Origin: Amoebophrya sp. A120
Taxonomy: Eukaryota > Protista > Dinoflagellata
Reading direction: 5' to 3'
DNA length: 64,000 bases
NCBI GenBank assembly: GCA_905178155.1
Contig: CAJINV010000011.1
Location: 1,819,216 to 1,883,215, forward strand
A program made the position numbers and the translations under genes. Below the pieces are notes generated by a model that was not told the DNA's origin, made no database searches, and saw only the letters and a list, made by a program, of their open reading frames with translations. Shown here in pieces: positions 56,445 through 61,406 of this stretch; the first letter of the stretch is position 1, and each line of letters opens with the position of its first letter.

Positions 56445-58193
56445 CTATTTTCGTGACGCCAGGTACACTCTGAAAAGCTTCAACGCATCACACCTGCACA
56501 TCGGACACGCCGGTCTTGTTGTAGAGAAGACTTGTTGGGTGCACATGTGGCACAGCGGCCCGTGCCCGCATGGCTGCACTGCTAAGAACGGGGGAGGGAT
56601 TTTCTCGTAGCACACCATGCATTCGGGTTCGAGCTCAGCACTAGCCTTCTCCACGGAACCACAGCCAGCAGGTGGGACGTTGCATCAAGTGGAAAGATGT
56701 CTGCGTCTAGAAACCTGTCACGCTGAATTGCGCATGATTGCAATTGCAGCTACACATGACAAGCTTCAGGACCGCTTTCTTTTAGTCTTAGTTTCTGATG
56801 CCTAACTTGCATATACGATGAATTGCGTTTTTGCATATTAAGGGAAGCTGCCCGACGTGATTCGCTGCTCCTGCGTTTTTTCAGGAATGGAATCAATGCA
56901 AGACACGCATTAACATTTTACAAGTTCCACCTTTCCAGACCCAGACAGATTTGCAGTCGATACGTTGACTTGAACGCCCATTCGCGCACAGAGATCCACG
57001 CAGCGGTCCGCGAACGTGGGAAACTCGGTAAGCCCTCGGGCTTGGTCACGCAATGCGTCTGCGAGGCGGATGTCCATCATGTCCTTCTGCCGACGGCGGG
57101 CGCAGCGACCAATGCAGTCCGCGATTGCAGTGCGGCCCAGTTGGCGGGCAGTCACCTCGGGCTGACCGAGCAAGAACATATTCGCAACTTGCTCCGCGTG
57201 GATAACTTCCTTTTCGCGCGACTCGACAGTGTGGCTCTCGAGATTGGCCTCGTAGCAGGAGAGTAGGTCTTCCACAATGCCAGCGCTGGCTTCCGCGTCC
57301 CTGGTTATGACTGCAGCCGAGAGTGCGGTTTCGCCCACCGCATTCGTCTCGTGGAACTGAATCTCCTTGTCTCGTGGCCGTGGATTTATTAAATTGCCCG
57401 AATCACTCCAGCGGCACACCGTTCCGGAAGTGAGGCTCTTCACTGTTGCCGCTGCGCGCGGGAGTCCGCAGGACGCCGCGTACGGCACCAGCGTATGAAC
57501 CGGCTCGCTGCTTATCGTGTTCAACAGTATCTTTACCACATCGCGCCGCTCACTGAACACGGCGGCAATAAGCGGCGTGAAACGTTCGGGCCCGTCCTTC
57601 GCGTTCAGGTCAATTAAGTGCCGATAAGTTCTTGCGTCAACATCTTCCCCACGTGGGCTGCTGGTGCTGGGCGAGAGTGGTTGTAGGTCAGCCGCCATTA
57701 AGCGCCGATAAGTTCTTGCGTCAACATCTTCCCCACGTGGGCGGCTGGGCGAGAGTGGTTGTAGGTAAGCCGCCTGCTCAGACAGTATTTGCTCGTAGTG
57801 CTCTCGCTGATTCCGTTCGCTTTCGAAGACAACTGGATCGATGTCCAACACCTGGATTAAACGCAGGTAGTCATTTCCCATCATGGAGGTAGACTCATCT
57901 TCCCAGTACTTCGCTCGGCATAGACGGTACAAGTCGTCTTGCGCAAGTTGGACATCCATCTCGGATCTCACACACCAAACATCATCGTGTTCGTGCCGCT
58001 GTAGAATGTGCAACCGGAGACATTCTCGCGCGTCAATGCCGAACTTTGCTTCTGGCCGAAAGCATCGATTGCAGTCAAGGCAGCCTGCCTCGATTGCAGT
58101 GTGGGGTGGAAGCCCCTTCGCGTTGTCACACGTCGACGTTTCTGCAGGAGGGAGTCTCCGCATGCCCTTGCCCTTGGACTGCTTCTGCCCCAT
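56445..58193 (-). CDS. Ankyrin-like repeat + C-terminal C3HC4 RING protein (paralog 1), putative E3 ligase
   Basis: MGQKQSK start; CxxC...HxxxxH finger; TPLIAAV and GETALSAAV ankyrin-like motifs; CMVC...PCGHGPLCHMC...CPMCR RING after removing introner 56683-56962. Confidence 0.85.
56683..56962. mobile_element. TIR introner in RING paralog 1
   Basis: catcaagtggaaagatgtctgcgtctagaaa ... tttccagacccagacagatttgcagtcgata; TSD cgttg; removal gives GVQVNVPPAG. Confidence 0.87.
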
Positions 58194-59262
58194 CTTACAG
58201 CTCAAATTTGGAAAAAAACCTAATACTGTAAGTATGTTCTTCCCAACGGTGATGTTGCAGCCTTTTCTGCATTTCCTCTGCGCATGTGCTCACCCCACAA
58301 AACGAACGAAGATATCGAGGACAGCACTTCAAATGCGATGCACGTACCGGCGCCAACTTCTCTCTTTTTTTCTCGTGCTTCTCTACCATGATAATCGCTC
58401 GGAAAACCCAGTAGCAGGCGTTTTGCTAGTACACAAACAATTTCGGAGAATAGGCTCGATATCCCACTCGATTTTTTTTCTTGCAGCGATTGGGTACTTT
58501 GATTCATACATGAAAGCGACACTCGACACACTCGTCCAGGACTGTGAACATTTTCGCCAAAGCGGTTCACAATCGGTCACGACCACAGACTTCTCTGTAC
58601 AACAACAAGACTCTTAATGCCTGAGAAGCACATGGACATGAGCATGACACGAGATTGCGACCTGCCTTGCATTACAGGTAGAACTGCACTTCTATTTAGT
58701 TACAGTCGGTCGCATAGAGCAATTTGGGAAGAGGACCTAGAAGTGTAGTTAGCGAGGATTTGGATTATAGACAGAATACTAGCACACACTGAAATGGCTG
58801 TGCAAGATTTGATTTTCTATTCTGCGGAAACTCCACCTGGTGACGCAGTAGATGGTTTTTTTTTTCCCTCTTCACCCCGCACAATCGATGCACGGCGCCA
58901 TGGCGACTATGTTGCTGTTGCCTCGCAAAGGCAGACTTCTCGGAAAAGTTCCGCGATTGGGTTTTGTTGCTCTTCTCCGGCAAAGAACAAGGTAACAGGC
59001 GTTCTAGGCGTGACCGGGGCGGAGCACGTCCGGCCGGTCGGACAAATTGTCGTGACAGTTCAGAACTAGGTGAGTCGGTGGCGTAATCTTGTCGCAGGTC
59101 TTGTAGCAGTGCGAGTTGCAGTACCTGTAGCCGCAGCCGCTCAATACTTGTTACCAGCAATTGTCAGTATTTTTGCCTTCCCACTGCTACAGGTGGAAAA
59201 GATGAAGAGCAACATGTTCTCGGGTACAAATGCCGCACCAAGTCGTGCTGTACCGAACCACT

Positions 59263-61406
59263 TTATTCTTGGTCCCGCATGTACACTTTCAAAAACCCGG
59301 TGATGTTACCTCTACAGACCGGACACCGTTTCTGGAAGTCATCGATCATGAAGTAGTCGATCATCAAGTAGTCGGCGCAACTCTCGCAGAATGGCGCGTG
59401 TCCGCACGGATTGACTGCGAAAATCGGAGGACGACATGGTTCGTAACACACGTGGCACTCGGGCTCGCTTTTTGCGCGCTGCAGCTCCACTTGGACCCCA
59501 ATTTGCGCACAGAGATCCACGCAACGGCCCGCAACCGAAGAAATATCGGACTCCATTCCGGCTTGGGGGTCGCCCAAACTGCCTCCCACGCGACTGTCCC
59601 TCTGCCGCCGGCGGATGAAGTGAGCCACGTAGGCTGCTATCGCATTCCGGCCGAGCATGCGGACGGTCTCTGCTGGATTGTCGCCCAATAACATCTTAGC
59701 AACCTGCTCCACGTGGATCGCTTCTTCCTCGGGCGCCTCAGCAGTACGTGCGTCGAGATTGGCCTCGTAACACTCGAGATATGGATTGCAAATATATCTG
59801 GGTCTGGAAATTTGTAATGCTTGTGCGAAGCCAAACTGGCTGTCGAGTTTGTTTGTATAATGCATCTTGCGCAAGAGCAAGATGACCTTCGCTTGTTTGT
59901 ACTTATCGCAAGAACGCGATTTCTCTCTCGGAATACGCACATTCACGGAGCAAACAAACTTTGTTATGCTTGCCTGCGAAGTGTGGGTATGCTGTTGCAT
60001 TGGCCTTGGCGATCATCCGAGATTTAGCATTACAACTTCCCAGATCCGGACATCTTTGCAGTGGATACGAGCAGGTCCTTCACGATGTCACCACTAGAGT
60101 CCGAATCTGTGTTTCGTACAGCAGCCGAGAGTGCGGTTTCGCCCGTCCCACTCGTCTCGTCGAACTGAATCTCTTTGTCGTGCGGTCTGTGTCCACGACT
60201 TGTTAATTTGCCCGACTCATGCCATCTACGCAGCGTTCCTGAAGTGAGGTTTTTCACTGCTGCCGCTGCGTGCGGGAGTCCGCAGGATGTGGCGTAAGCC
60301 AGCATTGTGTGGACCGGCTCGCTCTTGATGGTGTTGAGGAGCAACTGCACCACTTCACGCCGCCCGCTGAGCACGGCTGCAACAAGCGGCGTCACTTGCT
60401 TGGGCCCGTGTTTGGCATTCAGGTTTACAATTTTTCGCAACCCCCAGGGCTTTTCGCCGGGTCCTAGGGGACGCACAAAAAACTTTTCAGCAGAAAATTC
60501 TTTCCTGCGTTTCTCCATGAGCGAATTTCGTCTCTCTGCCAACATCAGGCAAATCGAATTCGCCGAAGGCGGGTTGCTGGTGTTGCTGTTGCTGGAGCGA
60601 TTAATGTCCTGGAGCGAACCGCTGGGTGGGTCACGCACGCCTTCTCCGGAACGTGTTTGTTTGAAGAGTTTGTTCCACGGACGGACTGGAGCGAGCGCCT
60701 CACTGTCAAGCTGGGCTAGATGAGCGGAGCTGGAGTGCGCGCTCGATGAATGGCGGATACGGAAACGCAGGTCTTCCGCTTGCTCAGAAAGTATTTGTTT
60801 GTAATGCTGGCGGCGATTTTGCTCGTTTTCGAAGACGACCGGATCCAAATCGAGGAGCTCGATCAGGCGCAGGTAATCGGTTCCAGAGGACTCGACTGTT
60901 CCGTCACCCGCACACAGCTCATACAATTCTCGTTCGAGTTGTCGTTCTGCGGAAACTCCAACGTAGTTTTCCATGCATTTGAAGACGCGACTCCAGCTAA
61001 TGCCGCGCTCCGAGTTGTCGCTTTCAGAGTCGGTTACGAGAGCGCTGCTGCTGCGGGTGGGCGGGGCGAAGGTGCAGGAGCCGGCGGCTCGTCCTCTCGT
61101 CGGACGAGTGTAGCCCGGGAATAGGCCCAAGGGCGGTGGCTTCTTACCGTCAGAGGTGATGTCATGCCGTTGCAGCATGTGCAATTCGAGGCATTTACGC
61201 GCGTCGACGCGAAAGAACGCTTCGGGCCGAAAGCACCGGCTGCACTGCGGACAAGTAGCCTGATCCGACTCGTACGCGACTGGCCGGTAGCACTGCATCC
61301 CGGGTCGACGCCTTAATAGTCCTCCGCCCGCGGGTGCACTGGAGGCGTCCGTCGGCGACGGTTCCGGAGGCTGCCTGCGAAGCCCCTTCGACTGCCTTTG
61401 CCCCAT
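59263..61406 (-). CDS. Ankyrin-like repeat + C-terminal C3HC4 RING protein (paralog 2), putative E3 ligase
   Basis: MGQRQSK start; CPQC...HMLQRH; TPLVAAV; GETALSAAV; CHVC...PCGHAPFCESC...CPVCR. Extensive similarity to paralog 1. Confidence 0.85.
59780..60067. mobile_element. TIR introner in RING paralog 2
   Basis: tatggattgcaaatatatctgggtctggaaa ... ttcccagatccggacatctttgcagtggata; TSD cgaga/cgagc; removal gives KDLLECYEANL. Confidence 0.9.

Follow-up and report, generated by a model that had tools for sequence, protein, structure and literature searches.

When two neighbouring copies of a gene each carry a transposon-like intron at a different place, were the introns gained after the copies had parted, and does each copy preserve the site as it stood before the other's insertion? 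This question is raised by a 64,000-nucleotide (nt) stretch of the Amoebophrya sp. A120 genome (contig CAJINV010000011.1, positions 1,819,216 to 1,883,215; hereafter, the window), in which two tandem genes for ankyrin-RING proteins, paralog 1 and paralog 2, are interrupted by one introner each, E1 and E2, respectively. The original prediction, drawn from the sequence alone, held that each paralog shows the empty site of the other's introner and that both introners had inserted, with formation of target-site duplications, after the gene duplication. We found that E1 and E2 are genuine introners of the published A120 family, in genuine paralogs, and that two gains after the duplication are the most economical history, aided by the opposite orientation of the two elements and, weakly, by divergence. 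The argument from reciprocal empty sites, however, held for one site only: the E2 site is gapless and intron-free in paralog 1, whereas the E1 target falls within 30 nt that are missing from paralog 2.

The two genes lie co-oriented on the minus strand with ~1.07 kilobases (kb) between their coding sequences (Table 1), and taking one intron out of each yielded open frames of 487 and 616 residues. The spliced products agree letter for letter with two deposited proteins, P0001 (paralog 1) and P0002 (paralog 2), which bear the NCBI name Amoebophrya sp. A120 and have consecutive accessions on one contig; read unspliced, the frames stop at residues 428 and 459, upstream of the RING. Both proteins run from an MGQ N-terminus through a Cys/His motif and ankyrin-like repeats to a C-terminal C3HC4 RING, and they are 51% identical over 466 aligned residues. 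The RING exceeded the Pfam cut-off in both paralogs, and ankyrin families did so in paralog 2, lying slightly below it in paralog 1. These identities and domain matches bear out the tandem pair as originally described, for which "ankyrin-RING paralogs" is a fair label; from their domains alone, the products are predicted to be E3 ubiquitin ligases. At the DNA level, likeness between the two gene regions was limited to coding segments and terminal inverted repeats (TIRs), and a tblastn search found no further paralog within the 64-kb window. As an in-frame 84-nt tandem duplication occurs in paralog 1 alone, it is younger than the gene duplication.

E1 and E2 share a TIR of ~30 nt with seven further copies found by a motif scan and one found later. 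Across these ten copies in the window, the two arms differ at 1 to 11 of 30 positions, with 8 of 30 mismatched in E1 and 8 of 30 in E2 (0.33 after correction); being among the more decayed copies of the family, the two elements are not recent. The pattern TAT-N7-AAA fits E2 at either end and E1 at its 5' end; at its 3' end, E1 has CAT-N7-AAA, read on the opposite strand. Each element is bordered by a 5-nt direct repeat, and flanks matching this well are expected by chance with p ~0.001 per element for 5/5 and ~0.016 for at least 4/5. In a global alignment E1 and E2 are only 62-66% alike, indicating that neither reached its gene as a passenger of the duplication. Compared with eight family copies, the interior of E1 matched in sense (z 6.4, against 0.4 in antisense) and that of E2 in antisense (z 8.6, against 2.1 in sense), so the interior of E2 is inverted relative both to E1 and to the family majority. 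Common termini combined with opposite orientations to the host genes indicate that E1 and E2 are separate insertions rather than a single intron that has shifted position. An end-to-end RNA fold is predicted for each (E1 z -3.57, E2 z -6.02; 0 of 200 shuffles as stable), a prediction only, and one expected anyway from the TIRs.

Relatives of E1 and E2 in the window fix the length of the target duplication. A generic TIR scan returned 19 candidates, compared with 0-1 in each of five Markov shuffles. We compiled 22 elements from 18 of the 19 candidates plus four added by eye from scan outputs (including a 58-row list, mostly nested or chance hits); candidate 20050-20647 and the later-found element 5905-6057 were left off. 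Over these 22 elements, a duplication length of 5 nt gave a mean flank match of 0.88 with 13 perfect pairs, against 0.18-0.30 and at most one perfect pair for lengths of 2-4 and 6-9 nt. A 4-nt duplication with asymmetric ends was ruled out (0/22 perfect at 4 nt), and for none of the 22 could the element be removed as a GT-AG pair ending in AG. Elements 48379-48614, 27084-27337 and 8887-9048 have decayed duplications (2-3 of 5 bases matching); they are probably older insertions, and such elements are helpful for locating the splice cut by raw reads.

Table 1. Coordinates of the gene pair, its introners and the sites compared, as positions in the window.
Feature	Position	Strand	Details
Paralog 1 coding sequence	58193-56445	-	487 residues; exons 58193-56964 and 56678-56445 (exon cut can slide within the direct repeat)
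Paralog 2 coding sequence	61406-59263	-	616 residues; exons 61406-60069 and 59775-59263
Introner E1	56683-56962	-	280 nt, TAT..ATG termini; interior in family majority orientation
E1 target duplication, 5' copy	56963-56967	-	CAACG
E1 target duplication, 3' copy	56678-56682	-	CAACG, 5/5
Introner E2	59780-60067	+	288 nt, TAT..ATA termini; host gene on minus strand
E2 target duplication, 5' copy	60068-60072	-	GCTCG
E2 target duplication, 3' copy	59775-59779	-	TCTCG, 4/5
Intron-free position in paralog 1 homologous to the E2 site	57260-57264	-	ACTCT, gapless alignment
30 coding nt (10 codons) in paralog 1 only	56655-56969	-	E1 interrupts two codons from segment start, best alignment
Point in paralog 2 without the 30-nt segment	59490-59491	-	best gap placement; not an empty target site
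In-frame 84-nt tandem duplication	57613-57774	-	~90% match; paralog 1 only

Both elements are removed in RNA-like contigs. Contigs of sequencing run X3 skip 285 nt at E1, and contigs of runs X3 and X6 skip 293 nt at E2, in both cases the length of the element plus 5. None of the seven equivalent cuts for the 285-nt skip, nor of the five for the 293-nt skip, provides an AG acceptor; if a GT start is chosen, they become GT..AC and GT..TC introns. At the imperfect duplications, every possible cut keeps the reading frame. Although one X3 contig runs across the intergenic stretch of the pair, we read X3 as RNA from its GT-AG-type skips and a gap in depth: in window 1-14500, its contigs also skip TIR-free introns whose inferred borders fit GT-AG, and its depth falls to zero over 13553-14500, against ~50 in the genome-sized run X1. 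An estuary run, X9, contributed two short pieces and no joint. Together with the 5-nt duplications, the TIRs and the many relatives in the window, this removal supports the claim that both elements are introners with target-site duplications.

Could the two interruptions instead be ordinary GT-AG introns, insertions left unspliced in dead genes, or artefacts of assembly? A GT start can be placed for each, an in-frame AG lies 296 nt downstream in paralog 2 and 315, 318 or 330 nt downstream in paralog 1, and the splice joints come from contigs, the single raw-read RNA run, X10, having given 0 reads. However, with skips of 285 and 293 nt, no equivalent cut ends in AG; the deposited proteins match the spliced reading; and non-synonymous divergence (dN 0.27) is lower than synonymous divergence (dS 0.67). 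The unspliced stretch was recovered in two genome-sized contig sets (1.00 of 527 sampled words), which are possibly the window's own source. We therefore regard all three explanations as very improbable. Canonical introns of 296 nt in paralog 2 and 315 nt in paralog 1 were specifically ruled out by the observed skips of 293 and 285 nt. A third joint, from 56953 to 59778 (21 letters on its short side, with 12 foreign letters between), links two TIRs and was set aside as another copy of the family.

Two further observations concern transcripts of the pair. A GT..AG span of 315 nt starts at the E1 border (56649-56963), and splicing it would leave paralog 1 with a linker exactly as long as that of paralog 2; the contig has the 285-nt form only. 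Moreover, one X3 contig (57713-61500) extends from paralog 2 through the intergenic stretch into the beginning of paralog 1, whereas X6 lacks coverage at 58214-58561; this contig may reflect read-through, long untranslated regions or joined transcripts, and a contig cannot prove a single transcript.

The same arithmetic recurred over window 1-14500. Contig coordinates there showed 741 nt gone over three elements, equal to their lengths plus 5 each, and 846 nt gone over four elements, again their lengths plus 5 each when element 5905-6057 is counted. Three other contig gaps in 1-14500 contain additional introns and hence allowed no exact length test. Splicing in 1-14500 was inferred from contig coordinates, as the joint table was swamped by repeat contigs (15 of 948 rows); thousands of X1 contigs pile onto the TIRs of this stretch. 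Minus-strand sequence at 154-13517 encodes a dynein heavy chain (Pfam DHC_N2, AAA_6, AAA_8); within this gene, copy 7991-8278 is inverted relative to 10087-10360, and its removal agrees with contig ends at 7986 and 8280. The dynein gene holds at least 15 TAT..ATA elements of several sub-families, and members of one family occur there in both orientations, apparently spliced.

We then asked what each paralog preserves of the other's insertion site. Around the E2 site, 42 of 60 nt are identical in paralog 1 without a gap; the target GCTCG faces ACTCT there, with 3/5 bases matching, and the codon following the site shares no base with its counterpart (a Ser versus a Glu codon). The E2 position is thus empty in paralog 1, but its target sequence is not preserved. 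For E1, all five bases of the target CAACG face a gap in the best of 16 placements, and under the alignment of the original prediction one of the five matches paralog 2. In all 16 placements, the site lay at the 30-nt gap or matched 1/5, and paralog 2 accordingly provides no gapless witness. The codon alignment of the two genes that had been proposed as a check was hence gapless at one site and gapped or poorly matched at the other.

An outgroup was sought to polarize the gap. A full profile search (278 proteins at E ≤0.001, five at 1e-10) identified a third A120 paralog on another contig, P0003 (CAD7955473.1, GSA120T00008210001), the only non-query protein that aligned over both sites; seven of the other 147 matches listed (P0005, P0009, P0012, P0042, P0046, P0116 and P0142) are apparently generic ankyrin or RING proteins. 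Word-indexed protein searches, of low sensitivity, returned the window proteins only, or paralog 2 alone. Protein searches yielded no ortholog of the paralogs outside A120, and none was recognised from A25 or AT5; two metagenome scans for outgroup DNA gave 360 and 330 pattern matches, 0 of them confirmed by tblastn. Linker lengths of 18 residues (P0003), 20 (paralog 1) and 10 (paralog 2) point to a loss of the 30-nt segment from paralog 2, the short state thus looking derived, a polarity read from one distant sequence at 26-31% identity in a loop. If so, paralog 2 says nothing on a former presence of E1. P0003 comprises a protein sequence only, and its alignment at the E2-site residue is ambiguous.

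A deletion of this kind may have taken the introner with it: E1 would then predate the duplication, paralog 2 would have lost E1 together with the 30-nt exon segment in one in-frame 315-nt deletion, and only E2 would have been gained later. Such a history accommodates the position of the E1 site, inside the gap or on its border whichever placement was tried, the long linker of P0003, and the 315-nt GT..AG span described above, whose removal yields precisely the paralog 2 linker. We nevertheless consider it unlikely. Linker indels are frequent in this pair, several of them large, so that an indel beside an intron is unsurprising; the arm divergence of 0.33 is smaller than the dS range of 0.50-0.93; the target repeat of E1 still matches 5/5; and contigs skip 285 nt, not 315.

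The timing was assessed from the conserved core of the paralogs, for which we obtained a dS of 0.67 (bootstrap 0.50-0.93; 210 codons); the whole-alignment dS of 1.04 is less reliable. As the arm-to-arm distance of 0.33 in both elements is smaller than the core dS, gain after the duplication is weakly favoured. Where sections 12 and 16 of Farhat et al. 2021 (PMC7789003) treat intron positions conserved between A25 and A120, 98.6% of these are canonical and insertion is judged likelier than loss, both of which we counted for gain after duplication.

Conversely, E2 or both introners may predate the duplication, with paralog 1 having lost E2 precisely via spliced cDNA or having arisen from a processed transcript; in the extreme, the loss would have been reciprocal. 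Recycling of mRNA into genes has been reported for dinoflagellates, and precise loss would leave exactly the gapless, intron-free state of paralog 1. Gain and loss are moreover indistinguishable between two orthologs, as PMC7789003, section 16, points out. However, such a history requires one or two extra events, and the adjacent tandem position fits a DNA-level duplication better than retroposition. Copies with near-perfect arms (1-3/30 mismatches) suggest insertion long after a split with a dS near 0.67, and E2 keeps 4/5 duplicated bases. Precise loss hence appears distinctly improbable to us.

Overall, E2 was very probably gained after the duplication and E1 probably so, while the joint statement that both inserted independently after it is likely, if slightly less certain than either gain taken singly. 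Several points weigh against this history of two gains. Paralog 2 gives no empty site for E1 and seems to have deleted the very segment concerned. X3 and X6 are contigs whose RNA label is a guess, and both stem from one study. The arm clock has 30 sites per element, and its arms may have been mismatched from the outset or held in pairing by selection; the spread of 1-11/30 mismatches across the ten copies weakens it further. Finally, no intron is common to both genes that would show intron survival in the pair.

A mechanism consistent with these results starts from an old tandem duplication, whose two products are 51% identical today. The target was then likely cut with a 5-nt stagger by a DDE transposase encoded elsewhere, which pasted in a non-autonomous copy, whereupon repair would have duplicated the 5 nt; the TA..TA ends point to the IS3EU/IS481/retroviral-integrase group, and no transposase was found here. 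As the RNA-like contigs show, the transcript drops the element with exactly one target copy and regains its frame. Pairing of the inverted repeats likely aligns the two target copies and so sets the cut; on this view, the indifference to orientation would follow. Lastly, paralog 2 probably lost the ten linker codons that hold E1 in paralog 1, which would leave only the E2 site with an intron-free witness. More speculatively, the removal rule might be blind to both splice dinucleotides and orientation (U1- and AG-independent, and perhaps transposon-derived), and the 30-nt gap of paralog 2 might be the scar of an imprecise E1 loss. We hold this combination to be improbable, but, if true, one gene pair would record both gain and loss of an introner.

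Other repeats occur elsewhere in the window. Just downstream of the gene pair, 53434-54667 holds a 17-nt satellite (~22 copies) followed by a 105-nt repeat, and 35141-36547 consists of 95-100-nt units repeated in tandem, with a stretch of N among them. Two 300-nt copies of 97% identity (14988-15287 and 21611-21910) lie 6.6 kb apart, and segments of 120-175 nt recur two to three times in 31413-33914 at 76-85% identity, perhaps marking a further small family of tandem genes.

The element class is already described for A120, and the deposited proteins already reflect both introns. Given the tens of thousands of published A120 introners, a single case adds little, and its value is methodological: tandem paralogs offer an internal clock and an empty-site control when divergence between orthologs is too great, and the present pair also illustrates a trap, the intron beside an indel. 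The rule of "element plus 5 nt, in either orientation" offers a more precise way into the non-canonical splicing of Amoebophrya, which is still unexplained, and into the identity of the mobilising transposase. A literature search, thin on subscription journals, returned no paper on the gene pair or on a paralog-based test in Amoebophrya.

Among known proteins, the XB3/XBAT-type plant E3 ligases likewise have ankyrin repeats followed by a C3HC4 RING, a likeness in layout only. The MG start of both paralogs, which resembles a myristoylation signal, is shared with these plant ligases, whereas the XB3/XBAT31 RING model PF24921 scored 21.5 and 20 bits in the paralogs, below its curated cut-off of 50.

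Introners with TIRs and target-site duplications are described as widespread in dinoflagellates in PMC12130899, PMC9860276 and Roy et al. (bioRxiv 10.1101/2020.10.14.339549). Those of Polarella glacialis and Symbiodinium (Roy et al.) and of Aureococcus (summarised by Roy et al. and in PMC9860276) are presented there as non-autonomous DNA transposons that make introns, with target duplications of 3-8 nt and several classes that work in both orientations. They carry or recruit G(T/C/A) and AG splice sites, whereas none of the 22 elements listed here allows an AG as part of a GT-AG pair. The filter given by Roy et al. asks for four ungapped residues on each side of an intron and would discard the E1 site. 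Among the transposon groups covered in PMC10045372, IS3EU/GingerRoot (TA..TA) and IS481EU (TNT..AYA) have short TIRs and termini like the TAT..AT(A/G) of E1 and E2. The usual duplication of IS3EU/GingerRoot is 6 base pairs (bp), whereas here 0/22 elements were perfect at 6 nt compared with 13/22 at 5, and that of IS481EU is ~4, 15 or 25 bp, compared with 5 here.

For A120 itself, PMC12130899 describes TIR introners with integrase-like open reading frames. The accessible text of PMC7789003 reports 29,850 introner elements in A120 with a median length of 247 nt, an inverted repeat of TAT, seven variable bases and AAA, non-canonical ends, a hairpin, and bordering direct repeats of 3-5 nt (the legend of Fig. 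S19 gives 5 bp); it also states that the U1 small nuclear RNA was not found in Amoebophrya. The comparison in that text is between A25 and A120 orthologs, with paralog pairs not used and element orientation not mentioned in it, and 4-nt repeats are given as the commonest in A120, whereas the copies in the window fit a uniform 5 nt, which the supplementary figures may show as well. E1 and E2 agree with these published introners in TIR pattern, direct repeats, splicing outside the GT-AG rule, hairpin and near-median length, and their co-oriented host genes and GC content near 51% are alike as well.

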